A stretch of 64,000 bases of DNA from Flavobacteriales bacterium (GCA_013359255.1 JABWCF010000015.1:26-64025); one strand, 5' to 3'; shown: positions 9,095 to 36,893, numbered from the stretch's first letter. Translations and numbers: made by a program. Notes: generated from the sequence alone by a model not told the origin.

Positions 9095-9178
9095 GCACAT
9101 TTGCAAGTCGTGCATTTTTGTTTTTAGGAAAATTTAAAAACAAAAAGTGCACGCCCTTCGGGAAATTTGCAAAAGAGC
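9095..9178. repeat. CACATT...AAAGAG hairpin motif (X1, leader of cassette 1)
   Basis: GCACATTTGC...GCAAAAGAGC with an inner TGCA...TGCA stem. Confidence 0.6.
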
Positions 9179-9383
9179 TGAACTCCACCCGCAAAACAAA
9201 AACACCCGCCAAAAAATTTTCCTTCGCTCCTACTTCGTGGAATGTTTTGTGCCTATTAATAAATCAAACCACTCTTTATTTCAATGACTCCTAATAAATC
9301 GATTAAGGATTTAGCAAAATATATATCCTTTTATTGAAACATAAAATCAACTTCAAATTCACATTTTAAAAATTTAAAATACA

Positions 9384-12275
9384 ATGAAAACAAAAATAAT
9401 AACAGCATTTGTCGCCATAATTTTTGTTACAAATATTATGGCTCAGAGTTCATATGTAAAAGTGAACTGTAATAATTTTGAGCTAAATGGTATCCCATTT
9501 CAACCATTAGTTTGTAATTATTTGACTCAATTCACTAAAGATTATAACAATAATACTTATTACTTATCTCCAAATTGGAATTATAGTGATAACTGGGGAT
9601 ATCCAAATACAGGAGGCCCCGGTAGATTTATTTATAGTTCAACAGATGATAAAGGAGTAAGTATAACAAAAGTTGGGAAAGATATGGCAAGAATAAAAAA
9701 TATGGGATTTAATACAATTCGGGTATTTGTTCAACCTGATAATAATAATGGGGTACTTGAAGTTCCTACAGGTTCTTATACTTCATACTTTTCAATTATA
9801 GATCAATTACTTGATTCGGCAAATACATATGATTTAAAAGTGATACTTGTTGTTGGTCCAAAAAAATCATGGGAAATACACGCGAGCTTTAAATCCTACT
9901 TAGAAATAATTTCAAACCATTTTAAGAATAACTCGACTATTTTGGGTTATGATTTATATAATGAGCCTTTTAATGATTATAGCCACAACAATGTAAATGA
10001 TAAATATAAAATTTCAAATTGGGTTTCTGAATGGTGCCACACAATAAGAAAACATGACATCAATCACTTAATAACCATTGGTCTTACTCATCCAGAAAAT
10101 TCAATAGCTTGGGATCCGCTAGTGATGCCAATTGACTTCGTCTCGTTTCATTTCTATGCATGGACAGAAAATTTACAAACCTCAAAAGATAGAATACAAG
10201 CTTATTTATACTGGGCTTCTCGAACAATTAAAATGCCTTGGATTATTGGAGAGATTGGATATAGTGGTACGAATACTTTTATAATTGACCCAGATGCTTT
10301 GGTTGGATCAGAAAATGACCAAGCAAATTTCGCTACTACAACCATGCAGAAATCTCTTGATTGTAATTGCCAAGGATATTCATGGTGGCAATATCAAGAA
10401 ATTAACTGGCAAAACCCTTGGGAGGATTATTTAGGTCTAATAAATAATTATGGTCCTAGTGGATTTGCAAATGAAACAAATAAACAAGCAGCAAGTGTTT
10501 TTTCTTCATATTCGTCAATGTCTGGAAATGCAAGTAATTGTACGAAACCATCGAATTATTACAATATTTATAATTATTCAAACATAGACTTAACGGGACG
10601 AGTGCTTGATAATTGGGGCATACCTGTTAAAAACGCTGTTATTATTGGTTGGAAAAATGTAAATGGTAATTGGCCATATTATATTACATATTCTGATGAT
10701 AATGGCTACTTTATATTGCGTTCAAATACTCCTGGCTATAATATACAAACATTATGGATATCGCTTCCTGGCTATTCTACTGTAAAGGCATCTAATCCAA
10801 TTTCCGGATTAAATTACTCTATAAAACCTATAAACTTTAATCGATGGACGAAAAAATGGACTAATGATGCAAACAATAAAATAGATGGCTGGTATGTTTT
10901 AGACACAGATCAATTTTTCTTTGCTGATTTTGATGGAAACGGGCAAGACGAATTGCTTTGTACTCAAAATAAAAATACGGGGAATAATTATATGACGATG
11001 TTATATTACAACAATTCCTCAGCTGATTGGGATTGGGGTTGGAGCAATTCTGGTAATGGGTGGATTGGCCCTTGGTACAAAAGAAATATAGATAGATTTT
11101 TTACTGGAGATTTTAACGGAGATGGGAAGTCGGACTTGTTATGTATGCAAGTTACAAATAACAATACTGATTGGTGGTCATTATTAAAGTTTAACAACAA
11201 TCAATGGAGTTATTTAACGAACAATTCTTATAATTCAGGAAGTGATTGGATTGGCTCTTGGCAAATACGCTCAATTGATGAGTTTTATGTTGGGGATTTT
11301 AATGGAGATGGTAAAGATGACTTATTTTGTATTCAAAAAACAAACAATAATACCGACTGGTTTAGTATACTAACTTTTAATCCCGTATCTGGCCTTTGGG
11401 ACTATCTTTATATTAATGGAATACCTATCACAAATTATGGTAGTGATTGGTTCGGGAGCTGGAAAATCAATTCTATTGATAAATATTATGTGGGGGATTT
11501 TAATGGAGACGGCAGAAGCGAGATTTTATGCACTCAATATACAGGTGGTTCAAATGATTGGATGGCTTTAAATAAACTTAATCTTTCAAATGGCACTTTT
11601 CAAAGGATTTGGTGTAATTGCGATAATGGAATACTTTATGATGATGGAATATATCCTTACAGGAATAAGTTAATAGTAGGAAATTTTGATGATGATTCAA
11701 AAGACGAAATTTTAGGTATACATACATGGGGTACAAAGTTCGATTTTGAATCAAATGATTTCCAATGGTCTTGGAGTACTGGAAATGGAGGTATATTTTC
11801 AGACTGGCAAGTATCTCCATCAGGTGAGAAATATTTTTTCACTAAAACTTACAAATATTCGCCCGAACAATTGATGTCCTTTAAGAAAATTGGATCAAAT
11901 TATCTTATAAATATGTATTCTTTTAATAAGGTAATAGAGTGCTCAACTCTTAGGAAGTTTAATCATACAGATTACCCGAATAACTCTGAAATTAATATCA
12001 TTAATGATGTTGATACTATACTGAATGTTTTTCCAAATCCTACAAATGGGAAAATATATATATCATTTGATTCAGATTCGAATTCTGGTACATTAATAAC
12101 CATAATCAATAATAAAGGAGAAATAGTTAGGAAAACATATCTCGATTATAAATCATCTATTGATAATATTGAGATTGATATTGATATGAAGGATTTATCA
12201 GAAGGAATGTATTTTATTAAGGTAATAAATGGTAAATTTGCTGCCTCTAAAAAGATTATTTATTTAAAAAAATAA
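9384..12275 (+). CDS. T9SS-secreted clan GH-A (GH5/GH2-like) glycoside hydrolase with FG-GAP/VCBS repeats
   Basis: Signal peptide; YDLYNEP acid/base and IIGEIG nucleophile motifs; repeated GDFNGDGxxD; C-terminal VFPNP...GMYFIKV T9SS domain. Confidence 0.8.
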   Translation: MKTKIITAFVAIIFVTNIMAQSSYVKVNCNNFELNGIPFQPLVCNYLTQFTKDYNNNTYYLSPNWNYSDNWGYPNTGGPGRFIYSSTDDKGVSITKVGKDMARIKNMGFNTIRVFVQPDNNNGVLEVPTGSYTSYFSIIDQLLDSANTYDLKVILVVGPKKSWEIHASFKSYLEIISNHFKNNSTILGYDLYNEPFNDYSHNNVNDKYKISNWVSEWCHTIRKHDINHLITIGLTHPENSIAWDPLVMPIDFVSFHFYAWTENLQTSKDRIQAYLYWASRTIKMPWIIGEIGYSGTNTFIIDPDALVGSENDQANFATTTMQKSLDCNCQGYSWWQYQEINWQNPWEDYLGLINNYGPSGFANETNKQAASVFSSYSSMSGNASNCTKPSNYYNIYNYSNIDLTGRVLDNWGIPVKNAVIIGWKNVNGNWPYYITYSDDNGYFILRSNTPGYNIQTLWISLPGYSTVKASNPISGLNYSIKPINFNRWTKKWTNDANNKIDGWYVLDTDQFFFADFDGNGQDELLCTQNKNTGNNYMTMLYYNNSSADWDWGWSNSGNGWIGPWYKRNIDRFFTGDFNGDGKSDLLCMQVTNNNTDWWSLLKFNNNQWSYLTNNSYNSGSDWIGSWQIRSIDEFYVGDFNGDGKDDLFCIQKTNNNTDWFSILTFNPVSGLWDYLYINGIPITNYGSDWFGSWKINSIDKYYVGDFNGDGRSEILCTQYTGGSNDWMALNKLNLSNGTFQRIWCNCDNGILYDDGIYPYRNKLIVGNFDDDSKDEILGIHTWGTKFDFESNDFQWSWSTGNGGIFSDWQVSPSGEKYFFTKTYKYSPEQLMSFKKIGSNYLINMYSFNKVIECSTLRKFNHTDYPNNSEINIINDVDTILNVFPNPTNGKIYISFDSDSNSGTLITIINNKGEIVRKTYLDYKSSIDNIEIDIDMKDLSEGMYFIKVINGKFAASKKIIYLKK

Positions 12276-12278
12276 AGC

Positions 12279-13139
12279 ATGGCTGGTTCCTTTAAAACAT
12301 TGCTAAAGTTTCTGATGCCAAAATATCAAAAACTCATTTTAGAATATAAAGTTGAATTTAAGCCAAGGTATGGGTATGGGTTAAAGCCCCATACCCTACT
12401 TTATGAACTTATAAATAAAAATAGATTTGTTTATATACATTTTCTTAAAAAAATTTTGACACATGAAAATATTTTTCAAGCAATAAAATCATTCGAGTTT
12501 GAAAAAAATGAAAATGAACCTACATGGAACAACGGTTTTCTGCCAGGGCTGGATATAGTATCTTTATATACTATTTTGGCTCATTATAAGCCAAGCAAAT
12601 ACATCGAAATTGGTTCAGGTAATTCTACTAAAGTAGCAAGAAAAAGTATTATAGAAAATAAATTAAACACAAAAGTTGTTTCAATAGATCCTTTTCCCAG
12701 AGCTAATATTGATCATTTGGCGGATGAAGTTATAAGACAACCTCTCGAAGATATAAAAGATTATCAATTTATTATTAGTGAATTAAAAGAAAACGATATT
12801 TTATTCATTGATAATTCACATAGATGTTTACCAAATTCAGATGTTACAGTTTGTTTTTTAGAGTTATTGCCTTATCTTAAAAAAGGGGTAATTGTTCATG
12901 TTCATGATATTTATTTGCCTTATGATTATCCTCAATTTATGTGCGACAGGTTTTATTCTGAACAATATGTTTTAGCGGCTTATATTTTAGCAAATCCTGA
13001 AAAATACAAACCAATATTTCCAGGTATGTTTATTAGTGAAGACAAAGAACTATCAGATATTATTTCGTCAATATGGGAACATTCTAATACAAGGGGTGTA
13101 GAAAAACATGGAGGTTCATTTTGGATACAGATTAATTAG
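12279..13139 (+). CDS. class I SAM-dependent methyltransferase (Methyltransf_24-like)
   Basis: YIEIGSGNST SAM motif; FIDNSH; VHVHDI. Confidence 0.8.
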   Translation: MAGSFKTLLKFLMPKYQKLILEYKVEFKPRYGYGLKPHTLLYELINKNRFVYIHFLKKILTHENIFQAIKSFEFEKNENEPTWNNGFLPGLDIVSLYTILAHYKPSKYIEIGSGNSTKVARKSIIENKLNTKVVSIDPFPRANIDHLADEVIRQPLEDIKDYQFIISELKENDILFIDNSHRCLPNSDVTVCFLELLPYLKKGVIVHVHDIYLPYDYPQFMCDRFYSEQYVLAAYILANPEKYKPIFPGMFISEDKELSDIISSIWEHSNTRGVEKHGGSFWIQIN

Positions 13140-13195
13140 ATTAAATATCAAACCCTCACTTTTTTTGTCATACTTTTTGTGCCGACACACTTTTA

Positions 13196-13233
13196 GCACA
13201 TTGCCGTCCTCGTTCCTGCGTGTGGCAAAGAGC
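13196..13233. repeat. CACATT...AAAGAG hairpin motif (X2, trailer of cassette 1)
   Basis: GCACATTGCC...GGCAAAGAGC. Confidence 0.6.
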
Positions 13234-13422
13234 TAAAGACAACCCTATAACAAAAAGATATGCCAAAAAGCAAACGCTCTTTGAAAAAATTCCTCGCTTC
13301 GAAAAAGTTAAATCTTTTCGACCGCTCATTGCCAACAGACAAAAAAGTGTTTCGACAAGGCAAAAAGCGAACAATAAAAACTATAAAAACACTATGAATA
13401 TAGCATTGCGGGACAGAACCAC

Positions 13423-13555
13423 TGGTGGTAACAGCACCTACCCAAAATTGGCGGTACAGTTGTTAAATCAAGCTATGTGCTTCAAAGTTTGTGCTTGGTT
13501 GACAGTGAAGTGCTTCAAAATCGCCACCTTCGGGTAGCTGCAAACCGTTGGCAGC
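13423..13555 (+). repeat. attC-like site B
   Basis: TGGTGGTAAC-A-GCACCTACCC...GGGTAGCTGC-AAACC-GTTGGCAGC. Confidence 0.85.
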
Positions 13556-13750
13556 AAGTGTATTAAGACAGACACGACAAACAAACGAGTGACAGAAACA
13601 GAAAAAAGTAAACCATTTTGACAGGTGACCAAAAACATAGAAACGATATTACAAACGGACAAGGAGTAAGCCGACACTCATTGCCAACCCTATATTTTTT
13701 ATTTTTTTCCCACCCGGATTTTTTAAAAACAAATTTAAGCCAGCACGCAA

Positions 13751-13812
13751 GTGGCACATTTGGCTTTGCCCCTACCCGCAAAGCCGACCCTTCGCAAAGC
13801 CAAAAGAGCCAC
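13751..13812. repeat. CACATT...AAAGAG hairpin motif (X3, leader of cassette 2)
   Basis: GTGGCACATTTGGCTTTGC...GCAAAGCCAAAAGAGCCAC. Confidence 0.65.
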
Positions 13813-13858
13813 TTATTATCAACGCTGATTTGTAAACAAAATTTACTTTATTGAATAT

Positions 13859-16687
13859 ATGATGAAGTATCTAGAATGGAATAATATCATATCGGCTTAT
13901 TTTTTCAATCCTGACAATGCAGGAAAGGATATTCATTTGTATCTAACCAAGAATGATATTATTGGTTTAGCGAGGCAAAATTTCAACGAAGAAACAGAAG
14001 ACGAAATTTGGACTGATTTTATCAATTCTATTAAACGAGGCATTCCGGGCTCAAACGGAAATGTGATTACAAAGGCAAAACACGCTCATTCCAAAAACAA
14101 TCTTATCGGCTTAAAAAAATCGGACGGAACATTTGCCACAATAGACGATGTTCCGGTATTATATCCACCTTACATTTCTTATTTGACTTTCTTAGTGCTA
14201 CCGTTAATTGAAAGTATTGATAACACTAATCTAAGAGCAAACAACTATTACGGCAGGCTTAATACTTTTTTACAAAGTAATCAAATAAATGAGAACATAG
14301 GAACAACCGATTTTAGCAACAATCAAATAAATAGTTTGTGGGAAGATTTGGCGAATTGGGCTAATATCAAAAAAAATGGTGATTTAGGTTTATTTAATGT
14401 AGTTCCCTTTTCAAATGCAAATTGGGTTTATGTTGGTAAAGTTTTTTCGCAATGTGTTTTACCGCCAAAATTTTTGAATCGTTTACCGGAACTATTTGAT
14501 TCTATTGGTTTAGTGCCGAACACGTTTTACGATGACAAGTTTTTACAAGATAAAATCAAAAACAGTAGAACAGATTTAATTCCGAAAAGCACGTTAGATT
14601 TTTTGAAAAAAGATGATGAGTTATCCAATTCAATTATTCAAACAATCCAACGTCAATACAAAAAATGGTCAGGCGAAACACACGAAGAAATTGAAGAAGG
14701 AACAAAAAAGAAAAGAAATTACACCGTTGCCCCCTTGTTTCTTCAATTTAAAGTAAACACAAACGATGAAGTTATTTCGTTCTCTTACAGAATGTATTCT
14801 TCAAATGATTATCCTGAAGATTTGAAATTTGGCGAACACGAAAACTTGTATGAAATCAACGGTTGGTCTAAAACACTACCCCTTGAATTTAACGAAGGAC
14901 TTGAACTGAAAGATAATTTCAACAAATGGATTGCAAAATTTCCAAATCGTGATGTGAGATTATTTGTAAGTGCAGGAACATTTCAGTTGAGTAATGATTT
15001 TTGGATTGAAACGGACTTTCTTTCAAAAACAGAACGAATGTATTTGCTATGCAAAAATGACAAACAAGAACTAATCAGAGATTGGGGTAAAACATTTAGC
15101 AACGGAAATTTTAAACAGGAAGATTTTGACGGCTTACCTGAAAACTATTCTTTGTTTTGGTTTCGTAACCCAACACAAGGTCTTACCGAAATTCCACTTC
15201 TTACACTCTATACCGAAAAACGAATTGAATTAGTTGGTGGTTTAAAAGTAAATTTCAGAACCTACTCAAATGACTTTTTACCGGAAGTTGAAATTGTAAA
15301 TTCAGACGGAAACGAAAAAGTGTATTTGCAATACAAAGACACAGACGAAAAAATATTTCTTTCTAAAAAGACATCGCTCAACAACCGTTGGCTATTGAGC
15401 GAAAAAACGGCAATAAATGCCGATTTTTATATTAAAGTTGAGGACGAAACTTTTTCAGGAAATGCACTTGTATACAATCTTGTTTCTTCTGACAATGCCG
15501 CTATCAAAGTTGATGAATCCAAATTGCCCAAAAGAGATTCCTTTGGAAGAAAAATCACAACTGATATGGAACAATATTGTTTAGGCAGCAATATCATAAA
15601 CCCAAACATTCAACGACAAGTCCCTTACACACATTTATTCCGTTCCATAAACACAGATACAGCCACACAAATAACAACAGCAATATTTAATCACCATTGC
15701 GGAAATAGACTTTGCGATTTTCTTTCATTAAAAGGCGTATTGACTACTGAAGAATTTTTCAGAGCATTTGAGTTTTACTATTCAAAAGAATTTACTGAAC
15801 AGCTGGTAAGTTCAAATTTCAATCTTACAAAATTGAAAAGAGCATCTTTAAATTTTTATGATTTTATCGGAATTCTTGATTATGATTATGAAACCAAAAA
15901 TATTGTGTTGAATCCTCCTCAATTAATCTACATACCTACAACAAAAGGAAGAAAAGTTTTGCTGATTGGTGCAAGAGATTCCGCATTGATTGAAACAATC
16001 ATAAAAACTGCACCAAAACACAATTTACAAGCAGAAATAACTAAACAATTTTCTTCCAATGAAAGATTGCTTTTACCCGATGTTATTACTTTAAAAGCAT
16101 TTCAACAATCTTCTGACAACTTTGGTGAAAAAAGCTTAGTAGCATTTGCAGATGAATTGCAGATAAAATTCAATGACAATAGCCTACCTCAAGTCGCATT
16201 CCTGAATTTTTCGGCAAGCATCACAGAATATGAGAGCTTATTACAACTTACAGATGAAAATGATTACGATTGGGCAAGATATAGTTTCAATCCTGAAACT
16301 TTAATGTTTGAGAAATGCGAGGAAAATTCAATTGATAAATCATTTTCATTACTTCAATACAAATTAAATGAATACACATACCAACACAAGCTATGGAAGC
16401 ATGGTAATTGTTATCAAATTGATATAAATTGGGGTAAATTTATTGCTTTAAAGCATTTTCAAAAAAACGTAATCTTGTTTGATCAAGCAAATAATAAAGT
16501 TGCTATACCCATAGAGCTTCCTTTACCAAGATTACTCGCAGAATCAATTATGTTGTTAAGTGGGTTTGCCCCTGACTTCAAAGTGATTGAAGATAAGAAA
16601 TATAGAATTTACGAAAATATCCCAAGTATTTTTACAACTAATTTATTCAGTAGGTTAGGTCAAACACCGATAAATACAACATTATGA
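13859..16687 (+). CDS. large hypothetical protein; putative Druantia partner (DruH-like)
   Basis: 942 aa with no recognisable catalytic motif; stop overlaps the start of a DruE-like helicase. The partner role is inferred from position and size. Confidence 0.55.
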   Translation: MMKYLEWNNIISAYFFNPDNAGKDIHLYLTKNDIIGLARQNFNEETEDEIWTDFINSIKRGIPGSNGNVITKAKHAHSKNNLIGLKKSDGTFATIDDVPVLYPPYISYLTFLVLPLIESIDNTNLRANNYYGRLNTFLQSNQINENIGTTDFSNNQINSLWEDLANWANIKKNGDLGLFNVVPFSNANWVYVGKVFSQCVLPPKFLNRLPELFDSIGLVPNTFYDDKFLQDKIKNSRTDLIPKSTLDFLKKDDELSNSIIQTIQRQYKKWSGETHEEIEEGTKKKRNYTVAPLFLQFKVNTNDEVISFSYRMYSSNDYPEDLKFGEHENLYEINGWSKTLPLEFNEGLELKDNFNKWIAKFPNRDVRLFVSAGTFQLSNDFWIETDFLSKTERMYLLCKNDKQELIRDWGKTFSNGNFKQEDFDGLPENYSLFWFRNPTQGLTEIPLLTLYTEKRIELVGGLKVNFRTYSNDFLPEVEIVNSDGNEKVYLQYKDTDEKIFLSKKTSLNNRWLLSEKTAINADFYIKVEDETFSGNALVYNLVSSDNAAIKVDESKLPKRDSFGRKITTDMEQYCLGSNIINPNIQRQVPYTHLFRSINTDTATQITTAIFNHHCGNRLCDFLSLKGVLTTEEFFRAFEFYYSKEFTEQLVSSNFNLTKLKRASLNFYDFIGILDYDYETKNIVLNPPQLIYIPTTKGRKVLLIGARDSALIETIIKTAPKHNLQAEITKQFSSNERLLLPDVITLKAFQQSSDNFGEKSLVAFADELQIKFNDNSLPQVAFLNFSASITEYESLLQLTDENDYDWARYSFNPETLMFEKCEENSIDKSFSLLQYKLNEYTYQHKLWKHGNCYQIDINWGKFIALKHFQKNVILFDQANNKVAIPIELPLPRLLAESIMLLSGFAPDFKVIEDKKYRIYENIPSIFTTNLFSRLGQTPINTTL

Positions 16688-24897: not shown

Positions 24898-24909
24898 ATC
24901 CCTCAATAT

Positions 24910-25136: not shown

Positions 25137-25272
25137 GCTGCCAACAGCCGTTTTGCAAAAGCGGGGTTTTCGTGCTTATATGACAGTGAAGTGCTAAATT
25201 CAAGCTTTGTGCATCTAATGAAGTTTAGTGCTGAAAATCCCCGCCTTCGCAAAGCGGCAAAACGTTACCGCC
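25137..25272 (+). repeat. attC-like site C
   Basis: GCTGCCAAC-A-GCCGTTTTGCAAAAGCGGGG...CCCCGCCTTCGCAAAGCGGC-AAAAC-GTTACCGCC. Confidence 0.88.
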
Positions 25273-25334
25273 AATGCTAAAAAAACAACGACAGTGAACA
25301 AAATGAACGACAGAGATAAAATGCCGACCGCACA

Positions 25335-25395
25335 TTCAAGCACATTTGGTTTTTACCGACACGCAAAGCCAAACCAAAAACCAAAAGAGCTTGAA
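25335..25395. repeat. CACATT...AAAGAG hairpin motif (X5, leader of cassette 3)
   Basis: TTCAAGCACATTTGGTTTTT...AAAAACCAAAAGAGCTTGAA. Confidence 0.65.
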
Positions 25396-25422
25396 TTTTG
25401 CCAACACGCAGACATAAAAATA

Positions 25423-25430
25423 TAAATTTG
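25423..25430 (+). promoter_or_regulatory. Bacteroidota -7 box inside cassette 3
   Basis: TAAATTTG ends 4 nt before the ATG at 25435. Confidence 0.45.
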
Positions 25431-25434
25431 AAGA

Positions 25435-28421: not shown

Positions 28422-28424
28422 GGT

Positions 28425-29759
28425 ATGTCATACAACAAAACAGGAAACAGGCCATTTGAATTTGCTAGTAAGAGCAACCATATTCATATTATCAAAGACC
28501 CAGAAGTTCAGAAGTTTTTAAGCCAACACGAACTTCCCAAAGAGGGTGATGAAATTTCTCTATTTGACCATTATTTGGTGGATATAAATTATGATGTTGC
28601 AGATTCTGTAGAATTCATTATAGCAGTAGATGGAGGTGATACAACAGTTCCAGTCAAATCAAAATTCCCTTCTTCAACAATAACCTTTTTTCAGTTTGGG
28701 GCTAACTTATTGAAAATTTCAGACCTTAAAGAATTGAGGGAGCAACCTTTCATTTCTCCACAATCAATCTCAAAACTAAAAGAATTACAGCGGATAAAAT
28801 TTACCTTACCGACCAAGAACATTGGCTTAATTGATGAAAATGGTAAACGAGCAACACTGACTTATTCTGTCAGAAAAGCCCTTTATGAATTTTTCAAACA
28901 ACACGATTTCCTATCAACTTTGAAATGGTTTCTTTTTGAAGAGTACAAGAAAAATCCAAAGTCGGAAAGAGAACTTGCAAGCCACCCAAATAATTCTGCT
29001 ACAAAGAAAGTGGTTATTCAAAGAGATAAAATCAATTCCGAATATAAAATACCACACGCAGACGGTGATTTGTTTTTGACAGATATTTTTAGGCTTCACG
29101 AAGTAGTGGATGAAGATTTAGGTGCAGGAGGTATTGTTGGCTATTTAAGAAATTTGATTGAACATTTCATTCTGATTGACACCATTAGAGGATTGTATAG
29201 AGTTAAGAAAGATACCTTAAAAGAGGTGTTATTTGTAAAAGATGGCCCATTAGGTTTCTTTGGACAAACTGCGAATATGCACGAGCCTATGAGAGAATTG
29301 TTGAATCACCTTAATTCTGAATTAAATATCTTTTTAGCAGGAATAGAAAAATCAGGTCCTTTTGTAGAGCACGCATTGGAAATTAAAGATAAAATTAAGC
29401 AAGGACAGGCGTATTTACTTTCAAACAAGCACATTTACAAGTATATAAAGCCGGGTGACTCTGACAATCCAGAAGCGTATGGACGTTCCTCATATTATGG
29501 CAGCAAAGTAATTTTTAAGTCCAGAGATGAAAGAATTTACGTGGTGACTATTCCTACTGAGAAAAGTGAAGTAGTTCTTAATCCTATCAAGTCGGACTTC
29601 AAGCACATTGACATCATAATGAAATACATTGAACGACTAAAAAGTGATATGTATGATAATTCTCTTTTACCGATTGCACTTGCAAACAAACTTGTTTCAC
29701 TTTCAGACCATCCAAGCTCTGTTTTACTTGAAAAGTTTGCTAAACACAATATAAAGTAG
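28425..29759 (+). CDS. nurA: NurA-family nuclease
   Basis: IAVDGG, VKDGPL, GIEKSG motifs; directly downstream of HerA. Confidence 0.75.
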   Translation: MSYNKTGNRPFEFASKSNHIHIIKDPEVQKFLSQHELPKEGDEISLFDHYLVDINYDVADSVEFIIAVDGGDTTVPVKSKFPSSTITFFQFGANLLKISDLKELREQPFISPQSISKLKELQRIKFTLPTKNIGLIDENGKRATLTYSVRKALYEFFKQHDFLSTLKWFLFEEYKKNPKSERELASHPNNSATKKVVIQRDKINSEYKIPHADGDLFLTDIFRLHEVVDEDLGAGGIVGYLRNLIEHFILIDTIRGLYRVKKDTLKEVLFVKDGPLGFFGQTANMHEPMRELLNHLNSELNIFLAGIEKSGPFVEHALEIKDKIKQGQAYLLSNKHIYKYIKPGDSDNPEAYGRSSYYGSKVIFKSRDERIYVVTIPTEKSEVVLNPIKSDFKHIDIIMKYIERLKSDMYDNSLLPIALANKLVSLSDHPSSVLLEKFAKHNIK

Positions 29760-29787
29760 ATTATGAAAATGCTAATGCTTCACAGCC

Positions 29788-29844
29788 ACACACATTGCCA
29801 AGTCGCTCAAGCCGACACGCAAGCCAAAACTTGGCAAAGAGTGT
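29788..29844. repeat. CACATT...AAAGAG hairpin motif (X6, trailer of cassette 3)
   Basis: ACACACATTGCCAAGT...ACTTGGCAAAGAGTGT. Confidence 0.65.
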
Positions 29845-29897
29845 GTCTGTCCAACTGCGCAACCGACAGACAAACGGACGAAGAAAAAGAAGCACTA

Positions 29898-30035
29898 GGC
29901 GGTAACATCACCTATACGCAAGCAGGGGTTTCGTGCTTCGTAGGACAGGTAAGTGCCAAATTTGAAGTTCAGTTCTTCGTAGGAAGTTCAGTGGTTAAAA
30001 TCCCTGCCTGCGTATAGCTGAATCCCGTTGTGCGT
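29898..30035 (+). repeat. attC-like site D
   Basis: GGCGGTAAC-A-TCACCTATACGCAAGCAGGG...CCCTGCCTGCGTATAGCTGA-ATCCC-GTTGTGCGT. Confidence 0.88.
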
Positions 30036-30091
30036 CAGTGTAAAAGCGACAACCCGACAAGTAAAAACGAATGACAAAACATATTAATTGA

Positions 30092-31771
30092 ATGACCGAA
30101 CACGAAAAATTTAAAAAACTTCTAGAATACTTTGTGACCCATCTTGAATGGCTCATAAATAACGATACAAATAATCGTGGTTACAATTTATACCTAAAAC
30201 CACTAATTGATAAAAATGAATTTTACTCTACTGGACAGGGTTACAATAACGGAAACATACAAAAACATATTGCTGAATGGTGTCACTATGAGAATGGCGA
30301 CATATTTATTAACATTCAGTCGAATTATGGAAATTACAAGACTGTTAAATGTTATTTAAACTGGGCTGACACAGGATTGAATGTTATCGCTCGTTGGAAT
30401 GACAACAAAATTAATTCACTTGCTTTAGAAGAGTATCAATTTTGGCTTAAACCAACAAAAAGAATTGATTTAGGAATCAATAAGTCAATAACAGAACTTG
30501 GTCTCTTTGACAATAATACACCGAATGAGAGTTTAAAAGATTTCTTCAATCAGTTCGAAAAGTTAATCATTGATTGGAACATAAAAGAACAAAATGAAGC
30601 TCAAATGAAAAAAATTCAACCATACTTAGATTTGCTTAAATCATCCAAAAACATAATCCTTACAGGTGCTCCTGGAACGGGTAAAACATTTTTAGCGAAA
30701 CTAATTGCAAGACAACTGATTGGAGTAAAAACCGATGACGAATTAGAAGAAAGTGGACAATTTAATTTTGTACAATTCCATCCTTCTTATGACTACACAG
30801 ACTTTGTTGAAGGACTGAGACCGACTCCACCTGATGAAAACGGAATAATCGGTTTTGAGATAAAAGACGGAATTTTTAAATCATTTTGCCAAAAGGCATC
30901 TGAGGCAAATTTTTCAGAAATAGTAGACAATTTTGATGTGGCTTGGGAAAATCTTTTGTCTGCGATTAGAAACAATATAGGACAAGGAAATTTAACCAAT
31001 ATCGGTTCTTGGGATTATGGTCTATCATCAAAAGACTCATTGAAATACACATCAGTTGATACACCCTCACAATATAATTTTACAATAACGAAAAAAAATG
31101 TTTACGATGCCTATCAAGGTAAGAAAGCAAGACCCTCCGGTGCTTTTCAAAAGGATATGGAAGATGTCGTAAATTATTTGAAAGCACATTTCAATTTAGT
31201 CGATTTTGTGGCAGGACAGGAAAATTCAACAAATGGATTAAAATACTTTGTTTTTGTCATTGACGAAATTAATAGAGGTGAAATCTCAAAAATATTTGGA
31301 GAATTATTCTTTTCGATTGACCCAAGTTATAGAGGTAAAAAAGGTGCAGTTAAAACTCAATATTCTAATTTACATAATGATGAAAAAGAGGTTTTTTATG
31401 TACCCGAAAATGTTTACATAATCGGCTCAATGAATGACATCGACAGGAGTGTTGAAAGTTTTGATTTTGCAATGCGAAGACGTTTTACTTGGATTGAGAT
31501 TACAGCAGAACAAAGTGCCGATAATATGAATTTGCCACAAGACATTAAAGAAAGAATGTTGAGGTTAAACAAGCAAATTTCTGAAACAGAAGGTCTTAAT
31601 CCTTCTTACCACATTGGCGCAGCTTACTTCTTAGATTCAAATGGTAATGCAAGACAAGACATTGACAACATTTGGAATTTACGAATCGAGCCACTTCTGA
31701 AAGAGTATTTGAGAGGAATGCCTGACAGCATTGATAAAATTGAACTTTTGAAAAATGCCTTTACAGCCTGA
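30092..31771 (+). CDS. mcrB: McrB-family AAA+ GTPase
   Basis: GAPGTGKT, FHPSYDYTDFVEG, IDEINRG, MNDID (NxxD), DFAMRRRF. Confidence 0.9.
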   Translation: MTEHEKFKKLLEYFVTHLEWLINNDTNNRGYNLYLKPLIDKNEFYSTGQGYNNGNIQKHIAEWCHYENGDIFINIQSNYGNYKTVKCYLNWADTGLNVIARWNDNKINSLALEEYQFWLKPTKRIDLGINKSITELGLFDNNTPNESLKDFFNQFEKLIIDWNIKEQNEAQMKKIQPYLDLLKSSKNIILTGAPGTGKTFLAKLIARQLIGVKTDDELEESGQFNFVQFHPSYDYTDFVEGLRPTPPDENGIIGFEIKDGIFKSFCQKASEANFSEIVDNFDVAWENLLSAIRNNIGQGNLTNIGSWDYGLSSKDSLKYTSVDTPSQYNFTITKKNVYDAYQGKKARPSGAFQKDMEDVVNYLKAHFNLVDFVAGQENSTNGLKYFVFVIDEINRGEISKIFGELFFSIDPSYRGKKGAVKTQYSNLHNDEKEVFYVPENVYIIGSMNDIDRSVESFDFAMRRRFTWIEITAEQSADNMNLPQDIKERMLRLNKQISETEGLNPSYHIGAAYFLDSNGNARQDIDNIWNLRIEPLLKEYLRGMPDSIDKIELLKNAFTA

Positions 31772-33090
31772 TGAGAACAACCGACAATAATGGCGGAAAA
31801 AGTATTGATAAATCCGACAATTTAAACATTGCCGATTTATCAGAAATAGCAAATAGAAACCTTTTGGATTTACAAATAGAAAATCCTGATTTGCTTGTTT
31901 TTCCTCATTCATTTGGTAAATATCAAGACGATGTTGAAAAACCTCATATTTTCTCACTAGACAGTGAAAACCTGACAACATACAATCTAATGGGTTTTAT
32001 TGGCCGAAATTCAACACAACTTACAATTTCATCACGCTTTGCCAAAGATGAAAACAACGATTATTTTTTGCATTATATGTTGCAAAAAGTCTTTTCGATT
32101 AACCTTTTAAAATTTGACCAAACACCCAATAAAGAGAACATTTGGGATTTTCTTCTTTACCTTTTTCCGTACTATCTCAAAAAAGCTTATTCTCAAGGAA
32201 TCTACAAAGCATACAAAAAGGAGGAATACAATGACACTAACGTCAAGGGAAGTATTGATGTTAAACGCCATATTCTTAGAAACATTCCGTTTACAGGAAA
32301 AATAGCATATACTACAAGAGAGCACAGCTATGATAATAATTTAACACAACTAATTAGACATACAATTGAGTTCATCAGAAACCACCCTTATGGCAGTGGA
32401 GTACTAACGGGTGACAGCGAACTAAGAGACATTGTGAGTAAATTTATTTTTGTAACTAATAAGACCTACAATGGTAATTCGAGACAAAAGATTATTACAG
32501 CCAATTTAAAACCAGTTACTCATCCTTATTTTACGGAGTATTCTGCGTTGCAGAAAATTTGTTTAAAAATTCTTCGTCACGAGAAAATTACATTTGGCAA
32601 AGAAAAAGATAAAGTTTACGGATTGTTGTTTGATGGTGCTTGGCTTTGGGAAGAGTACCTTAATATCATTCTAAAAGAAAACTTCATTCATCCAGAAAAC
32701 AAAACAGGGAAACATCGACAATACCTATTTGAAAACAATATACAATCAATATTTCCTGATTTCATCAGCAAACTTGAACCAAAATCTGTCGGGGATGCAA
32801 AGTATATTCCACTTGACAGACAACAATCATATTCAGAAAATTCCGAAAAGGCAACAAGCATTTACTACAAGACAATTGCTTATATGTACAGGTTTAGTTC
32901 AAAAAATGGTTTTTTAATCTTCCCAAGACAAGACACGAGCTTTTTTGAAACATACCGCATAAAAGAGACAGACGGAACACTAAATAAAATTGGACTTGCA
33001 ATTCCACAGACAACAGAAAACTTTAAAGATTATATAAAAACAATGAACTTTAATGAAGAAGAATTGAGACAACATTTAATGACAAACTAA
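31771..33090 (+). CDS. mcrC: McrC-family nuclease subunit
   Basis: Coupled to McrB; LWEEY, PDF...DAKY PD-(D/E)XK motif. Confidence 0.85.
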   Translation: MRTTDNNGGKSIDKSDNLNIADLSEIANRNLLDLQIENPDLLVFPHSFGKYQDDVEKPHIFSLDSENLTTYNLMGFIGRNSTQLTISSRFAKDENNDYFLHYMLQKVFSINLLKFDQTPNKENIWDFLLYLFPYYLKKAYSQGIYKAYKKEEYNDTNVKGSIDVKRHILRNIPFTGKIAYTTREHSYDNNLTQLIRHTIEFIRNHPYGSGVLTGDSELRDIVSKFIFVTNKTYNGNSRQKIITANLKPVTHPYFTEYSALQKICLKILRHEKITFGKEKDKVYGLLFDGAWLWEEYLNIILKENFIHPENKTGKHRQYLFENNIQSIFPDFISKLEPKSVGDAKYIPLDRQQSYSENSEKATSIYYKTIAYMYRFSSKNGFLIFPRQDTSFFETYRIKETDGTLNKIGLAIPQTTENFKDYIKTMNFNEEELRQHLMTN

Positions 33091-33097
33091 ACACCGA

Positions 33098-33234
33098 ACG
33101 CACAACAGGCGTTTGGCTCAATGGCGGTTGAAGTGGTTAATTGAACATTCTACCTCGTATCAACTTTTGTGGTGTATTGACAGTTTTGTGCTCCGAAATC
33201 CGCCACTGCGCCAAGCGCCAAAACGTTATGTGAT
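33098..33234 (+). repeat. attC-like site E
   Basis: ACGCACAAC-A-GGCGTTTGGC...TGGCGG...CCGCCA...GCCAAGCGCC-AAAAC-GTTATGTGAT. Confidence 0.88.
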
Positions 33235-34309
33235 ATAATAAAAAGACGACCAACAAAAGATGATAGACATAATTGGAGACATTCACGGACACGCAGACAA
33301 ACTCGAAGAGTTGCTTTTAAAGTTAGGTTATACAAAAAATAACGGGACATATTTACATCCAGACAGAAAAGTGTTGTTTGTTGGAGACTATATTGACAGG
33401 GGACCAAAAATCAGAGAAACACTTCAAATAGTAAGAGCAATGGTGGACAGTGAAAATGCCATTGCAATAATGGGAAATCACGAATACAATGCACTATGTT
33501 TTCATTTCCAAGAAACCGAAGGCGGACACCTCAGAAAACATTTAATCAAAAATATTATTCAACATTACGAGACGCTCAAACAATTTCAAAATAGACAGAA
33601 GGAATATGAAGACTATTTGGACTGGTTTAAGACATTACCACTTTACTACGAAACCGACACTTTCAAAGCTGTTCACGCCTGTTGGGATAACAAAAACATT
33701 GAATATTTAAGAAACATTTTAGTAAATGACAGACTTACTGACGAACTTATTTATCAATCAGTTAAGAAAGGAACGGAATTAAATGAAGCAATAGACCAAA
33801 CACTTAAAGGCAAAGAAATGAAAATGCCGGAGGGGCTTTACTTTACTGACAAAGACGGAACAAAAAGAACTGAAATAAGAATAAAGTGGTGGGAAGACCC
33901 AGCAACTATGACTTACAAATCTATTAGTGTTGAACCAATCGATAATTTACCAGAGAAACCAATTGAATTATCAGAATTAAAATCGCTTGACTTTTACAGA
34001 GACAATGATAAAAAAGTATTCTTTGGACACTATTGGCTTAAAGGAGAACCTTCCCTATACAAGGAAAATATTTGTTGTTTAGATTACAGCATTGCAAAAG
34101 GTGGAAAACTTGTTGCTTACCGATTAAATGGAGAGACAGAATTAAACAGTAAAAATCTAACTTATGTCTAAAAGAATTACATCACATAACAGCCGTTTTG
34201 CGTCAGGCGGGGTGACGTGCAAACTTGAAGGTTTGTGCTCCTATTTAGCTTTGGTGCAGGTTGACAGCTTAGTGCTTCTATGCCCGCCCGACCGCAAAGC
34301 CGCAAACCG
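33226..34309 (+). mobile_element. cassette 5 (1084 bp): metallophosphoesterase
   Basis: Starts G|TTATGTGAT and is closed by ATCACATAAC at 34181 (10/10 complement). Confidence 0.82.
33260..34171 (+). CDS. calcineurin-like metallophosphoesterase (PPP/ApaH-like)
   Basis: GDIHG, GDYIDRG, GNHE, HAC, FGHYW, CLD motifs. Confidence 0.9.
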   Translation: MIDIIGDIHGHADKLEELLLKLGYTKNNGTYLHPDRKVLFVGDYIDRGPKIRETLQIVRAMVDSENAIAIMGNHEYNALCFHFQETEGGHLRKHLIKNIIQHYETLKQFQNRQKEYEDYLDWFKTLPLYYETDTFKAVHACWDNKNIEYLRNILVNDRLTDELIYQSVKKGTELNEAIDQTLKGKEMKMPEGLYFTDKDGTKRTEIRIKWWEDPATMTYKSISVEPIDNLPEKPIELSELKSLDFYRDNDKKVFFGHYWLKGEPSLYKENICCLDYSIAKGGKLVAYRLNGETELNSKNLTYV

Positions 34310-34311
34310 AT
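34181..34311 (+). repeat. attC-like site F
   Basis: ATCACATAAC-A-GCCGTTTTGCGTCAGGCGGG...CCCGCCCGACCGCAAAGCCGC-AAACC-G|AT. Confidence 0.85.
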
Positions 34312-34485
34312 AGAACGCAACCCTTACTCCAGAAAAGCAGACCCTCCCACCGGTCGGGATCTCTTCTCCACAACGCTTCGTTGCGTTCTATCGGTCAGGG
34401 CTTCTCGTTCCGAATATCCGCAACCCTGCGGGATGCGTCTATCAATGGCTTATCGCCATTGAAACGGAACGACAAGCCCGGACCG
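34310..34485 (+). mobile_element. cassette 6 (176 bp): ORF-less mini-cassette with G|AT core and a distinct palindromic site
   Basis: GATAGAACGCAAC (34309) complements GTTGCGTTCTATC (34380); CGGTCAGGGCTTCTCGTTCCG pairs with CGGAACGACAAGCCCGGACCG (19/21). Confidence 0.7.
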
Positions 34486-34686
34486 TTAGCGGTAATTATT
34501 ATTGACAGTTATTGCTATTATGTTAAGGCATCCCATAACGACAAAAAATGAGAAAAATAATATCCCGTTTATAAGGACATTAAAATCCAACTTTATCAGA
34601 GCGACTAAACCAAAAACAATAACTGCAATGACATAAGAAATACCAAGCCACTTCCAATCAATAGATTTTACAATATTTTGTATCAT
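34486..34686 (-). CDS. small membrane protein
   Basis: 66 aa with two hydrophobic helices; start overlaps the Fic stop; its TAA stop is the complement of the TTA of the cassette core. Confidence 0.55.
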   Translation of the reverse strand: MIQNIVKSIDWKWLGISYVIAVIVFGLVALIKLDFNVLINGILFFSFFVVMGCLNIIAITVNNNYR

Positions 34687-35477
34687 TTTATAGACTCTTT
34701 AAGTGCTTCGGGCAACATCAATAAAAACGGTAAACATCTATCCCAATAAAGGGCATAGTAATTATATCCCAATGCAATGTTTTGATAATAATCAGGACGG
34801 TTATCCCAATAATATTTTTCAGAATTTATAGACCAAGCCGACAAACCAAGTTTAGACACCAAAAACCATTTTTCAAGCAAACGTGCAGACCGACCATTAC
34901 CATCCATAAATGGGTGAATTTTTGCAGTCCACAAATGAATCATTGAAGCATAGTAAAAAACCTCTTTGTAAGACAAATCCCTTTTCAATAATTCTGATAT
35001 ATCATTAAACAATTTGCTTAATTCTTCATTTACAAACTGTGGTTCGACAGCCAAATAAACAGGTCTAAGTGTTTTTGAATCCCTCACTCCCACTTGCTCT
35101 TTTCTGACTTTTCCACGTAAATTGACAGGCAAAAGTGTTTTGGATAGTATTTCATGAATCTTAAGAAAATTGGTTTTATTAAGGTTGTTTTCAGAGGCAA
35201 ACTTGTATGCTTTTACTAAATCTTCAATCTCTTGCACTTCTTTTTTCTTTGGAAAACTTTTATTTCCTCTGTTTCTAAAAAAGCTGTTAGCATCAAGAGT
35301 GTTACCCTCAATTTTAGACGAGTAAAGCGAAGAAGCTATCAGATAATATTCAAAATCATCAGTTGTAAATGTTGACTTTGACCTTAATTTATGGAATACC
35401 TCTAACCAATCAATTTTGCACTTTGACGAGTATTTATCAAGGTATTCGGGCGATATAAATTTCAAGTGTTTTCCCAT
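34683..35477 (-). CDS. Fic family protein (class II, N-terminal inhibitory helix)
   Basis: HPFMDGNGRSAR canonical Fic motif; SSKIEG matches (S/T)xxxE(G/N). Confidence 0.9.
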   Translation of the reverse strand: MGKHLKFISPEYLDKYSSKCKIDWLEVFHKLRSKSTFTTDDFEYYLIASSLYSSKIEGNTLDANSFFRNRGNKSFPKKKEVQEIEDLVKAYKFASENNLNKTNFLKIHEILSKTLLPVNLRGKVRKEQVGVRDSKTLRPVYLAVEPQFVNEELSKLFNDISELLKRDLSYKEVFYYASMIHLWTAKIHPFMDGNGRSARLLEKWFLVSKLGLSAWSINSEKYYWDNRPDYYQNIALGYNYYALYWDRCLPFLLMLPEALKESIK

Positions 35478-35481
35478 AGGA

Positions 35482-35489
35482 CAAATTTA
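35482..35489 (-). promoter_or_regulatory. Bacteroidota -7 box for the inverted Fic cassette
   Basis: TAAATTTG on the minus strand, 4 nt before the Fic start. Confidence 0.45.
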
Positions 35490-35510
35490 CTATTTTTGAG
35501 TATATATAAC

Positions 35511-35647
35511 TACCGCTAACATCGGTTTTGCGTCAGGCGGGGTGACGGGCTTCTATTGACAATTTTGTGTATAATTGAAGTGCGGTTCTTCGTATCAAGC
35601 GTAGTGCTAAAAAGCCCGCCCGAACGCAAAGCCGAAAAACGTTATAC
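35511..35647 (+). repeat. attC-like site G
   Basis: TACCGCTAAC-A-TCGGTTTTGCGTCAGGCGGG...CCCGCCCGAACGCAAAGCCGA-AAAAC-GTTATAC. Confidence 0.88.
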
Positions 35648-35680
35648 CTCACCTTATGACATAACACCAAATCTAACAAC

Positions 35681-35887
35681 ATGAAAGTTAACAAAAAAGA
35701 AATAGCAAAATTTTTCGCAGGACTAACTGCTTGGGAAGCTATTGTTCATTTATCATTATCAACTTGTAATATGTTGCCAATTACTTGGTGCAATTTCACC
35801 CTGACAAGCACTTTAAACACAATACAAATAATAGTTCCAGGTGCAATTTCAATATTATTGACCTGGTATGCTTGGTTTAAAAAATAA
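35681..35887 (+). CDS. small membrane protein
   Basis: 68 aa with two predicted TM segments, starting just after the cassette core. Confidence 0.6.
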   Translation: MKVNKKEIAKFFAGLTAWEAIVHLSLSTCNMLPITWCNFTLTSTLNTIQIIVPGAISILLTWYAWFKK

Positions 35888-35891
35888 TATA

Positions 35892-36521
35892 ATGGAAAAT
35901 TTTGACCGTAAAAAACACTGGGAAAATATCTATCAGACTAAAGAACTGAAAGAGGTAAGTTGGTTTCAACCTACACCCGAAACTTCATTGGACTTCTTTA
36001 AACAATTCAACGTGCCTACAACTGCAAAAGTGATTGACATTGGCGGTGGTGATAGTTTTTTAGTTGATCATTTACTCGACTTGGGTTATCAAGACATTTC
36101 TGTTCTCGACATTTCAGCGGCTGCCATTGACAGAGCAAAACAACGACTTGGAGAAAGAGCAAAAAATGTAAAATGGATAGTTGCAGATGCTGCGACTTTT
36201 CAGCCGACAGAGAAATATGACTTTTGGCATGACCGTGCAGCATTTCACTTTTTGACAGACGAACAAGAAATTTCAAACTATATCGACACTGCACAAAAAA
36301 GTATCAAGCCAACAGGAGTTTTGGTAATCGGGACATTTTCGGAACAAGGACCAAAAAAATGTAGTGGAATAGAAATAAAACAATACTCGGAAACGACAAT
36401 GACCGACCGAATGAAAAAGTTTTTTGAGAAAATTAAGTGCATTACGGTTGACCACAAAACACCCTTTGACACTATTCAGAATTTTGTTTTTTGCAGTTTC
36501 AGAAAATTACAAACGGATTGA
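35892..36521 (+). CDS. class I SAM-dependent methyltransferase
   Basis: IDIGGGDS, DISAAAI, WHDRAAFHFL; ATG at 35892 is the likelier start. Confidence 0.88.
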   Translation: MENFDRKKHWENIYQTKELKEVSWFQPTPETSLDFFKQFNVPTTAKVIDIGGGDSFLVDHLLDLGYQDISVLDISAAAIDRAKQRLGERAKNVKWIVADAATFQPTEKYDFWHDRAAFHFLTDEQEISNYIDTAQKSIKPTGVLVIGTFSEQGPKKCSGIEIKQYSETTMTDRMKKFFEKIKCITVDHKTPFDTIQNFVFCSFRKLQTD

Positions 36522-36545
36522 CACGACACGAGAAAATAGAAGGGC

Positions 36546-36686
36546 ATCCGCTAACAAGGGCTTTGTGTCAGACCTGGTAACGTGCAAACTCAGAGTTTTG
36601 CGCTTCTATCTAAGTTTATGCTTAGTTGACAGTTTTGTGTGCTTCTAAATTGCCCTCCTTTTGGTAGCTGAAAACCGTTACCAACA
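36546..36686 (+). repeat. degenerate/chimeric attC-like site H
   Basis: CCGCTAAC...AAAACC-GTTACCAAC with the conserved loop. The left arm resembles sites F/G and the right arm resembles site B, so they do not form the long stem. Confidence 0.65.
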
Positions 36687-36803
36687 AGGCGAAAAAACGA
36701 CAGCGACATTGAAAATGGTTTGAGAATGAATAACGAAATGACAATGAAAGAAAAAAGATTTAGTTTTTTGCCAACCCCTAAAAAATAAAAGTGGAAAGCT
36801 GTT

Positions 36804-36868
36804 CCACATTTGGTACATTCGCTTCTGCTGCCACATAAGCAGATACTCCGCATAAGTAAAAGAGCCAC
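36804..36868. repeat. degenerate CACATT...AAAGAG motif (X7)
   Basis: CCACATTTGG...TAAAAGAGCCAC in the leader that follows site H. Confidence 0.45.
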
Positions 36869-36893
36869 TCTTCCAACTGTTCCATTAAAATCC

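Follow-up and report, generated by a model that had tools for sequence, protein, structure and literature searches.

In the phylum Bacteroidota, one class of large integron-type gene cassettes carries a structured hairpin at either end of the cargo, where exchangeable multi-gene cargo meets a backbone that is used again and again. The hairpin is described here from a stretch of 64,000 nucleotides (nt) of a Flavobacteriales bacterium (GCA_013359255.1 JABWCF010000015.1:26-64025), which is referred to as the window and is numbered from its first letter. Throughout the phylum, the hairpin keeps a mismatched core within stems that change in a compensatory manner, as expected of an element under strong selection; it is linked in position and orientation to attC-like sites; and homology between cassettes with unrelated cargo ends at its foot. 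The interpretation favoured here, with some reserve, is that the hairpin represents a DNA-level, protein-recognized end module of the cassette backbone that delimits the cargo.

Integrons have barely been described in Bacteroidota, and the origin of cassettes from genes is an open question. In Bacteroidetes, IntegronFinder 2.0 reported a single complete integron, in Salinibacter, all other elements being of the integrase-only kind (PMC9024848). The hairpin offers a testable handle on cassette modularity and origin, and it accounts for the fact that large cassettes have long 'untranslated' flanks. Additionally, the cargo that it brackets consists mostly of anti-phage systems, and a covariance model of the hairpin can serve as a marker for bracketed cargo and new defence operons where standard integron tools see nothing. 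The genome that carries the window belongs to the class Bacteroidia and has 2.9 Mb at 36 % G+C; in what follows, C denotes contigs (the window being contig C19), L loci fetched from other genomes, and G genomes, with G000 standing for this one.

Anatomy and conservation of the hairpin

Each hairpin is composed of a variable outer stem of 4-9 bp, an invariant frame in which C-ACATT faces AAAGA-G, an inner stem of 3-11 bp that is likewise variable, and a loop. Within the frame, the two strands meet as A.A, C-G, A.A and then two T-A pairs. The loop spans approximately 20-28 nt and is C/A-rich in most copies, frequently including words such as CGCACAAGCCGAC; in three copies of this genome, however, the stem is longer and the loop AT-rich.

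Covariation in the stems is strong, both at home and elsewhere. Among 13 copies of this genome, 11 of 15 pairs show compensatory changes, and only 27-47 % of cells are paired when the partner column is slid. A family model (R1) built from these 13 copies was used to collect 137 copies from 100 loci of other genomes, the loci having been fetched by patterns that fix the core. In this larger set, 94.7 % of stem cells are paired, and the covariation score is 0.61, as opposed to 0.15 for shuffled columns and at most 0.09 for a slid partner. Compensatory changes occur at 13 of 14 pairs, a count that overstates the number of independent events since a few old subtypes differ from one another and contribute part of the variation (AAATGGC, for instance, is an L-type foot, and GCAAGC and CACAC are T-type feet); individual positions nevertheless have up to five types of pair. 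The core letters and both A.A mismatches are retained in 132-137 of the 137 copies, an invariance that is inflated by the core-fixing fetch patterns.

The stems are almost purely Watson-Crick, with 15 G.T (0.5 %) and 22 A.C (0.8 %) among 2761 pairs; many C.T 'mismatches' are artefacts, because the flanks are C-rich and T-rich. For comparison, the attC arms of the same loci have approximately 10 % isolated transition mismatches. Clean helices whose two mismatches are never 'repaired' indicate that the mismatched core is strongly selected. Near-absence of G.U pairs is unusual in a selected RNA helix, and pairing this clean would be less expected of a typical regulatory RNA than of a palindrome in DNA or a very stable RNA helix, although it does not decide the matter.

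In the window, six strong copies, all on the + strand, match R1 at 32.8-66.7 bits, with E-values from 1e-6 to 2e-16. Cassette 1 has its leader hairpin at 9090-9184 (long stem and AT-rich loop; 32.8 bits, E 1.2e-6) and its trailer hairpin at 13191-13239 (the short, CACATTG type; 35.5 bits, E 1.9e-7), 57 nt past the stop codon at 13139. In cassette 2, the leader hairpin lies at 13749-13815 (61.5 bits), 44 nt before the ATG at 13859, and the trailer hairpin at 24912-24976 (59.5 bits), with a paired stem that begins 13 nt past the stop codon at 24897. Cassette 3 carries a leader hairpin at 25335-25396 (63.5 bits), which is kept in three homologous cassettes discussed below (L144, L145 and L148), and a trailer hairpin at 29785-29848 (66.7 bits), 26 nt past the stop codon at 29759.

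The initial annotation had listed seven copies. The seventh, located after the last attC-like site and before an AraC-family gene (36808-36871, + strand; 13.7 bits), is a relic at best, because its outer stem is not complementary and its match to R1 is not significant (E 0.36). The anatomy that had been proposed is otherwise borne out. The frame with its two A.A mismatches is found in all six strong copies; the flanking stems differ yet remain complementary, with 95.7 % of cells paired in the 13 copies of this genome; and one leader and one trailer copy are present in each of cassettes 1-3, with no match in cassettes 4-7 (30046-36700). The two hairpins of cassette 1 are, in addition, preceded by 42 nt that match each other at 76 % (family D12). 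A proposed difference between leaders, reading CACATTT, and trailers, reading CACATTG, holds inside the window but not beyond it, as trailers on C18 and C2 read CACATTTG; the T/G position after CACATT is itself a covarying pair, U-A in 118 and G-C in 13 of the 137 copies.

Cassette backbones and their breakpoints

All eight of the hairpin-bearing cassettes of this genome are ordered attC, hairpin, open reading frames (ORFs), hairpin, attC, and the same order recurs elsewhere, complete integron-type loci of other genomes among them. In leaders, the hairpin is 7-190 nt past the attC-like site and mostly 30-120 nt ahead of the first ORF. Trailer copies follow the stop codon at a median distance of approximately 14-15 nt, with an attC-like site 25-160 nt further on. 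The spacing from trailer to leader is 224-512 nt, and that from leader to trailer 2-11.5 kb. Hairpins are restricted to cassettes with long non-coding flanks; compact cassettes are without them, even multi-gene ones of 3-4 kb.

Leader and trailer hairpins are always on the same strand, and every attC match adjoining a hairpin in other genomes is co-oriented with that hairpin. This orientation persists when the cargo is reversed. In L053, the whole cargo, including one ORF with a type IX secretion system (T9SS) sorting domain, is on the opposite strand, and in L055, L104 and L018 the first ORF is reversed; together with L028, these make five informative cases, in each of which the hairpin follows attC. 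Pfam matches of the reversed ORFs in L053, L055 and L018, to AraC-family domains in the last two, indicate that these ORFs are real genes. Since the hairpins keep the attC orientation over reversed cargo, they are not sense elements of the cargo mRNA, which leaves DNA or transcripts running in the array direction as options.

C/A-rich words close to GCCAACGCAC flank the hairpin on both sides. Further upstream of the hairpin, leaders carry TGTATTTTTATTTTTT, CCCACCGCAC and ATTTTTTAAAAACAATTTT; trailers carry AAAAATTGTTTTTAAAAAAT, CCCAACGC and AAAAAAAATAAAAATACA. The leader module of cassette 2 (13571-13748, + strand) comprises a C/A-rich spacer, a T-rich run, a CCCACC word and a ATTTTTTAAAAACAAATTT block, and is conserved across genera, being 76-81 % identical over 207-341 nt to L145, L066, L015 and L045, with unrelated cargo behind. 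The trailer module of the same cassette (24977-25125, + strand) contains GCCAACGCAAG, AAAAATTGTTTTTAAAAAAT, CCCGACCC and AAAAAATAAAAAA. The AT-rich blocks of trailer and leader modules are mutual inverted complements, as is also the case at 115657-116087 of G000 C18, whereas in both modules the C-rich blocks have their C residues on the + strand. Consequently, trailer, attC and leader together form a long imperfect palindrome with mismatched bubbles. When 24900-25410 was folded, on either strand, both hairpins and attC were recovered; a stem between trailer and leader was not, the leader of cassette 3 being short.

The breakpoints of this backbone were located in an all-against-all comparison of the sequences around 102 hairpins, from 400 nt upstream to 600 nt downstream. 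In leaders with unrelated cargo, homology runs from the attC R' core, approximately 200-300 nt upstream, to 2-45 nt past AAAGA; in trailers with unrelated cargo, it runs from 2-28 nt ahead of ACATT to 175-335 nt downstream. Thus, cargo boundaries in homologues coincide with the motif, leader homology from the R' core ceasing 4-23 nt past AAAGAG, and backbone similarity gives out at the hairpin foot. In 10 of 14 leader pairs of high identity, the match ends 4-11 nt past AAAGAG, i.e. at the 3' foot, and in the other four after the T-run and word. The leader of L096, for example, is 96 % identical over 246 nt to the C18 leader of this genome; the match starts exactly at the attC-like GTTACCTGC and stops after the hairpin, the T-run and GCCAACGCAC, with no alignment beyond. 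On the trailer side, L057 (Algoriphagus) matches the cassette 3 trailer and attC at 91.5 % over 248 nt, from 9 nt ahead of ACATT to the R' core, and has unrelated cargo. A single chassis with different cargoes, which had been suggested as something to look for, is common: in a set of 31 complete cassettes, 28 pairs have 150 nt or more of leader and/or trailer in common in the absence of cargo similarity, and only seven share cargo.

An empty chassis, with one motif and no cargo, had also been anticipated. A scan for a complete hairpin followed by RCACATT within 36 nt returned 23 loci. In 22 of these, the second match is no hairpin, and is mostly a C/A-rich flanking word that runs into CACATT, often at the cargo junction. 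The sole true tandem, L236 (a Flavobacteriaceae bin), has an L-type hairpin at 2654-2718 (41 bits) and a T-type hairpin at 2734-2796 (58 bits), 15 nt apart and separated by one common word, TTTCCAACGC. ATTCA directly followed by GTTGTTGTGC precedes the pair, and a trailer with a short attC-like palindrome comes after it. This single case has the form that would be expected if cargo had been removed from, or never inserted, between the hairpin feet, so that one empty backbone exists, though with two adjacent hairpins rather than one. No single-hairpin empty chassis was found, the candidates L017 and L047 being ordinary trailers after truncated ORFs, and a looser tandem pattern applied to metagenomes gave one real hairpin in 120 loci. 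As a separate observation, in a subset of leaders (L229, L246, L232, L245, L228, L243, L230, L238, L237 and L234) the flanking word runs into CACATT at the cargo; an example is GCCAACGCACATT directly followed by cargo, as if the first six letters of the hairpin core remained at the junction.

Homologues of cassette 3 illustrate what moves with the hairpins. The cassette (25261-29907) is found with both hairpins at 91-94 % nucleotide identity in L144, L145 and L148, which belong to bins assigned to Cytophagales, Ignavibacteriaceae and Flavobacteriales, respectively. Similarity begins precisely at CGTTACCGCC in the attC-like site upstream and ends at the downstream R', and hence the whole cassette moves as a unit at the attC core, with the hairpins travelling along. 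Provided that the bins are clean, copies this similar point to recent transfer across orders, and perhaps phyla. At the downstream end, identity between cassette 3 and its homologues extends as far as GGCGGTAACA, which is the 5' box of the attC-like site. Beyond it, the window has a different attC body (29887-30046), then McrBC, and then the attC body of the homologues (33086-33249), which the homologues carry directly (L144, 6502-6660; L145, 8468-8628; L148, 8468-8625). Such an arrangement suggests that an insertion or exchange took place at the 5' (R'') box and not, as usual, at the 3' point between G and TT.

The operon also occurs in other settings. In L147, a Bacteroidales chromosome (OY764079.1), it has both hairpins, with a different repeat of approximately 280 nt replacing this attC family; the repeats, at 8470-8760 and 9950-10230, lie between trailer and leader hairpins and may represent another class of recombination site serving hairpin-bracketed cassettes. 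In L146, a Chitinophagaceae bin, the operon is 79 % identical in nucleotides, with the alignment confined to the stretch from start to stop codon, and neither hairpins nor an attC match are present. None of more than 70 more distant homologues of the operon, from many phyla, has a hairpin. Finally, L149 and L150, which lie outside arrays, have kept the promoter-like stretch described below and show decayed hairpins, and thus selection on the hairpin seems tied to life in the array.

Candidate roles of the hairpin

The closest comparison is with attC itself. Like attC sites of integrons, the hairpin is an imperfect palindrome in which structure prevails over sequence, with a basal stem, an unpaired centre, a second stem and a variable loop, and it is both strand-polar and restricted to cassette arrays. 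However, none of the 137 copies has the AAC/GTT column (RYYYAAC ... GTTRRRY) at the foot, which is variable save for an R-C/G-Y adjoining the ACATT/AAAGA frame. Furthermore, the hairpin occurs twice per cassette and inside the unit, whereas whole cassettes break at the attC R' core, and its stems are approximately 10 times cleaner than attC arms. The attC profile gives no match to the hairpin.

As an end module, the hairpin would form the cargo-facing end of a non-coding backbone built around the attC-like site of large, self-promoted integron-type cassettes of Bacteroidota. Such a cassette would read R' core, leader, hairpin, cargo, hairpin, trailer and attC, and in the excised circle the two hairpins would bound a continuous block of approximately 0.5-0.9 kb centred on attC. 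The hairpin would fold when its strand is single-stranded or extruded, and a protein, for which the integron recombinase and a conserved host factor are candidates, would read the invariant mismatched core (A.A, C-G, A.A). Any active role in recombination would then lie in fixing the points where cargo joins, or is exchanged between, backbones. In favour of an end module count the covarying, cleanly paired stems around an invariant core, the confinement to attC arrays, an orientation set by attC, recombinase homologues beside bracketed cassettes in three genomes, the position at the seam, the empty backbone L236, and the loss or decay of hairpins outside arrays. The proposal in the initial annotation of an element marking the operon-loading seam is similar; confinement to cassettes, covariation and the cargo boundaries speak for it, and the lack of target-site duplication speaks against it. 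Indeed, the similarity of words flanking the cargo is no greater within a cassette (5.55) than between cassettes (5.23 +/- 0.24), which indicates neither a target duplication nor a shared crossover core.

That last result is among several points that weigh against an end module. Whole cassettes break at the attC R' core, and so their usual mobility needs no hairpin, and the range of distances between hairpin and attC (7-190 nt) argues against a rigid complex that joins the two. The informative reversed-gene cases number five, and a single empty backbone was found. Wobble pairs are too rare, at 15 G.T versus 22 A.C, for a strand call. Lastly, the T-run and promoter-like pair that come after many leader hairpins fit a transcriptional role.

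The main rival is a role in RNA, which is somewhat less likely; the initial annotation, too, had offered a transcription or processing signal as its alternative. Here, the hairpins would be terminators, or processing or stabilizing stem-loops, in transcripts that run in the array direction, and would isolate a self-expressed and potentially toxic operon from read-through on either side; in variants of the idea, they would be sites for RNase III, or blocks to 3'-exonucleases after Rho termination in the C-rich, G-poor trailer. Sequences after the leader copies suit such a role. A T-run of at least 4 is present in 46 of 108 leaders and a TTTG ... TAnnTTT[G/A] pair in 49 of 108, the TTTG often at +5 to +8 and the TAnnTTT[G/A] box approximately 30 nt further, where it can be read as part of a promoter with the published Bacteroidetes -33/-7 consensus. 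In cassette 3, a T-run, a GCCAAC word and a promoter-like pair (TTTG ... TAAATTTG) occupy 25397-25434 on the + strand; this is the stretch kept in L149 and L150, and it may act as a promoter. The short distance of trailer hairpins from the stop codon, the restriction of hairpins to cassettes with long non-coding flanks, and an orientation along the array are all compatible with insulation, and compact cassettes devoid of promoters would need read-through, and hence would be without hairpins.

In common with intrinsic terminators and with RNase III hairpins of the phage T7 R1.1 type, the elements are stable stem-loops at operon ends, with a T-run after leader copies and an internal loop in a helix of approximately 22-27 bp. 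Stems of that length with an internal loop resemble RNase III substrates. However, T-runs of at least 4 follow only 3 of 34 trailers and a -7 box none of 34; the trailers are without U-tracts and the loops of 20-28 nt are unlike those of intrinsic terminators; and a simple terminator scan did not flag the hairpins. The scarcity of G.U pairs also runs counter to a selected RNA. In addition, a terminator gives no reason for an asymmetric core that is invariant across the phylum, nor does it explain why backbone homology ends at the hairpin foot. The orientation of the hairpins follows attC and not the neighbouring gene, and with the reversed cargo of L053 they cannot serve the cargo mRNA. Two further transcriptional resemblances were considered and set aside. 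A single-strand promoter (Frpo-like) was suggested by CACATTTG, which is similar to a -7 box, but the stem is too short for the spacing to a -33 box; and a likeness of GCTCTTTTG on the opposite strand to boxA was judged to be due to chance.

It is unlikely, though of consequence if true, that the unit of hairpin, word and hairpin, seen bare in L236, is the attachment site of a second layer of recombination nested in the integron. A Bacteroidota integrase-like recombinase acting on a structure other than attC, or another partner, would bring in, excise or exchange operons at the foot of each hairpin. Such a layer would convert ordinary operons into attC-bearing cassettes and would offer a concrete mechanism for cassette making.

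Less probable still is a passive part, in which the hairpins and C/A-rich spacers would keep the cargo from mispairing with the attC arms and would involve no dedicated protein. The top-strand spacers between hairpin and attC are nearly free of G and T, hairpins occur in long cassettes only, and their orientation is tied to attC, all of which would suit a spacer; however, an invariant 12-letter core with two mismatches would be superfluous for a clamp, and multi-gene cassettes of 3-4 kb manage in the absence of hairpins.

Finally, a selfish palindromic repeat moved in trans by an HUH (Y1) transposase, whether akin to repetitive extragenic palindromes (REPs), to miniature inverted-repeat transposable elements or to the ends of insertion sequences (IS) of the IS200/IS605 family, is scarcely credible: same-strand hairpins stand at both ends of the unit as in IS200/IS605, and Y1_Tnp homologues, which are common and unlinked to the hairpin, are present in 21 of 22 hairpin-positive versus 8 of 19 hairpin-negative relatives, but the copies are found only in attC arrays, neither the interior nor the surroundings of the hairpin pair contain a transposase, target duplications are absent, and units break at the attC R' core. 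The specific likenesses are nonetheless instructive. REPs and bacterial interspersed mosaic elements, with their REP-associated tyrosine transposases (RAYTs), are likewise short extragenic palindromes of many copies in which conserved sequence stands by variable complementary arms, and REPs are also located after stop codons; unlike the hairpin, which is confined to three attC arrays here, REPs and REPINs are dispersed genome-wide. Two RAYT-like (Y1 HUH) genes of this genome (G000 C2:99915-100385 and C14:44175-44720) were rejected as partners, being flanked by their own inverted palindromes, which are unrelated to the hairpin. The ends of IS200/IS605 elements and of palindrome-associated transposable elements are also two related, imperfect, same-strand hairpins with in-stem mismatches that bracket a cargo. 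In contrast to IS200/IS605, the units described here have no Y1 transposase in or beside them and no evident fixed cleavage tetranucleotide, and their cargo consists of ordinary operons of 2-11.5 kb. No insertions of the hairpin outside arrays were seen.

Distribution, cargos and recombinases

A search of the whole genome found 15 copies with the model and 16 with a regular expression, all of them within the attC arrays of three contigs, C19, C18 and C2. The concern that the motif might occur equally outside cassettes is thereby answered for this genome, where neither search gave a copy outside them. Model-based matches identify the hairpin in 22 of 41 relatives and in 125 of 301 Bacteroidia genomes drawn evenly across the class (approximately 40 %), representing 89 of 168 genera. 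Among the exact-pattern matches listed, the Bacteroidota are represented by Flavobacteriales, Cytophagales, Chitinophagales, Sphingobacteriales, Bacteroidales and Saprospiraceae, and the list also includes Ignavibacteria and a few bins labelled as other phyla. Cultured strains with such a match include Mesonia mobilis DSM 19841, Algoriphagus antarcticus DSM 15986, Cecembia rubra DSM 28057 and Draconibacterium orientale DSM 25947. In IMG/VR viral contigs, 10 of 61 pattern matches are real hairpins, and five of those 10 have an attC-like match in the locus. Collections of plasmid and phage records gave no hairpin match. Rfam release 15 has no match in the window at gathering score, and a permissive Rfam scan of 24850-25450 gave chance-level matches only; no description of the hairpin was found in the searchable literature.

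The window contains seven attC-like sites of approximately 155 nt, all on the + strand. The array is flanked by a short-chain dehydrogenase gene upstream (7986-8753) and by the AraC-family gene downstream, from 36907. Cassette 1 is closed by the site at 13413-13570 (nhmmer E 2e-34, with alignment), cassette 2 by that at 25126-25288 (nhmmer E 1e-39; R' core CGTTACCGCC), and cassette 3 by that at 29887-30046, the body of which is unlike that of the 91-94 % homologues of the cassette. The other sites lie at 33086-33249, 34171-34327, 35503-35661 and 36536-36699. The same attC-like sites are also clustered on C2, C18, C16, C9 and C12 of this genome. The attC profile was built from the seven window sites and misses divergent ones, such that a result of 'no attC nearby' elsewhere is weak.

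The cargo of cassette 1 (9384-13139) encodes a methyltransferase and an FG-GAP protein of 963 aa that has a T9SS sorting domain, and thus bracketed cargo does not consist solely of defence systems. Based on Pfam matches, cassette 2 carries a four-gene, defence-like operon (13859-24897, + strand), the products of which are a protein of 942 aa, a 2007-aa helicase with an MZB domain, a PD-(D/E)XK nuclease and a C5 methylase. Cassette 3 (cargo at 25435-29759, + strand) encodes an N4/N6 methylase, a HerA-like ATPase and a 444-aa protein, as judged from Pfam and homologues. The remaining cassettes of the window hold McrBC and small single-gene cargos.

There is no recombinase gene within the window. 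The best integrase-like gene of the genome, at a contig end (C31:210-1358, - strand), encodes an integrase-like tyrosine recombinase of approximately 380 aa that falls below the TIGR02249 cut-off, scoring 117 and 92 bits in two stretches versus 265. A homologue is present in 18 of 22 hairpin-positive versus 9 of 19 hairpin-negative relatives, and hence the link is not exclusive. In three genomes, G007 (C1:1348005-1349126), G027 (C44:10195-11013) and G033 (C2:464067-465119), homologues of this recombinase lie upstream of hairpin-bearing cassettes and in the same direction, the 'inverted integrase' layout.

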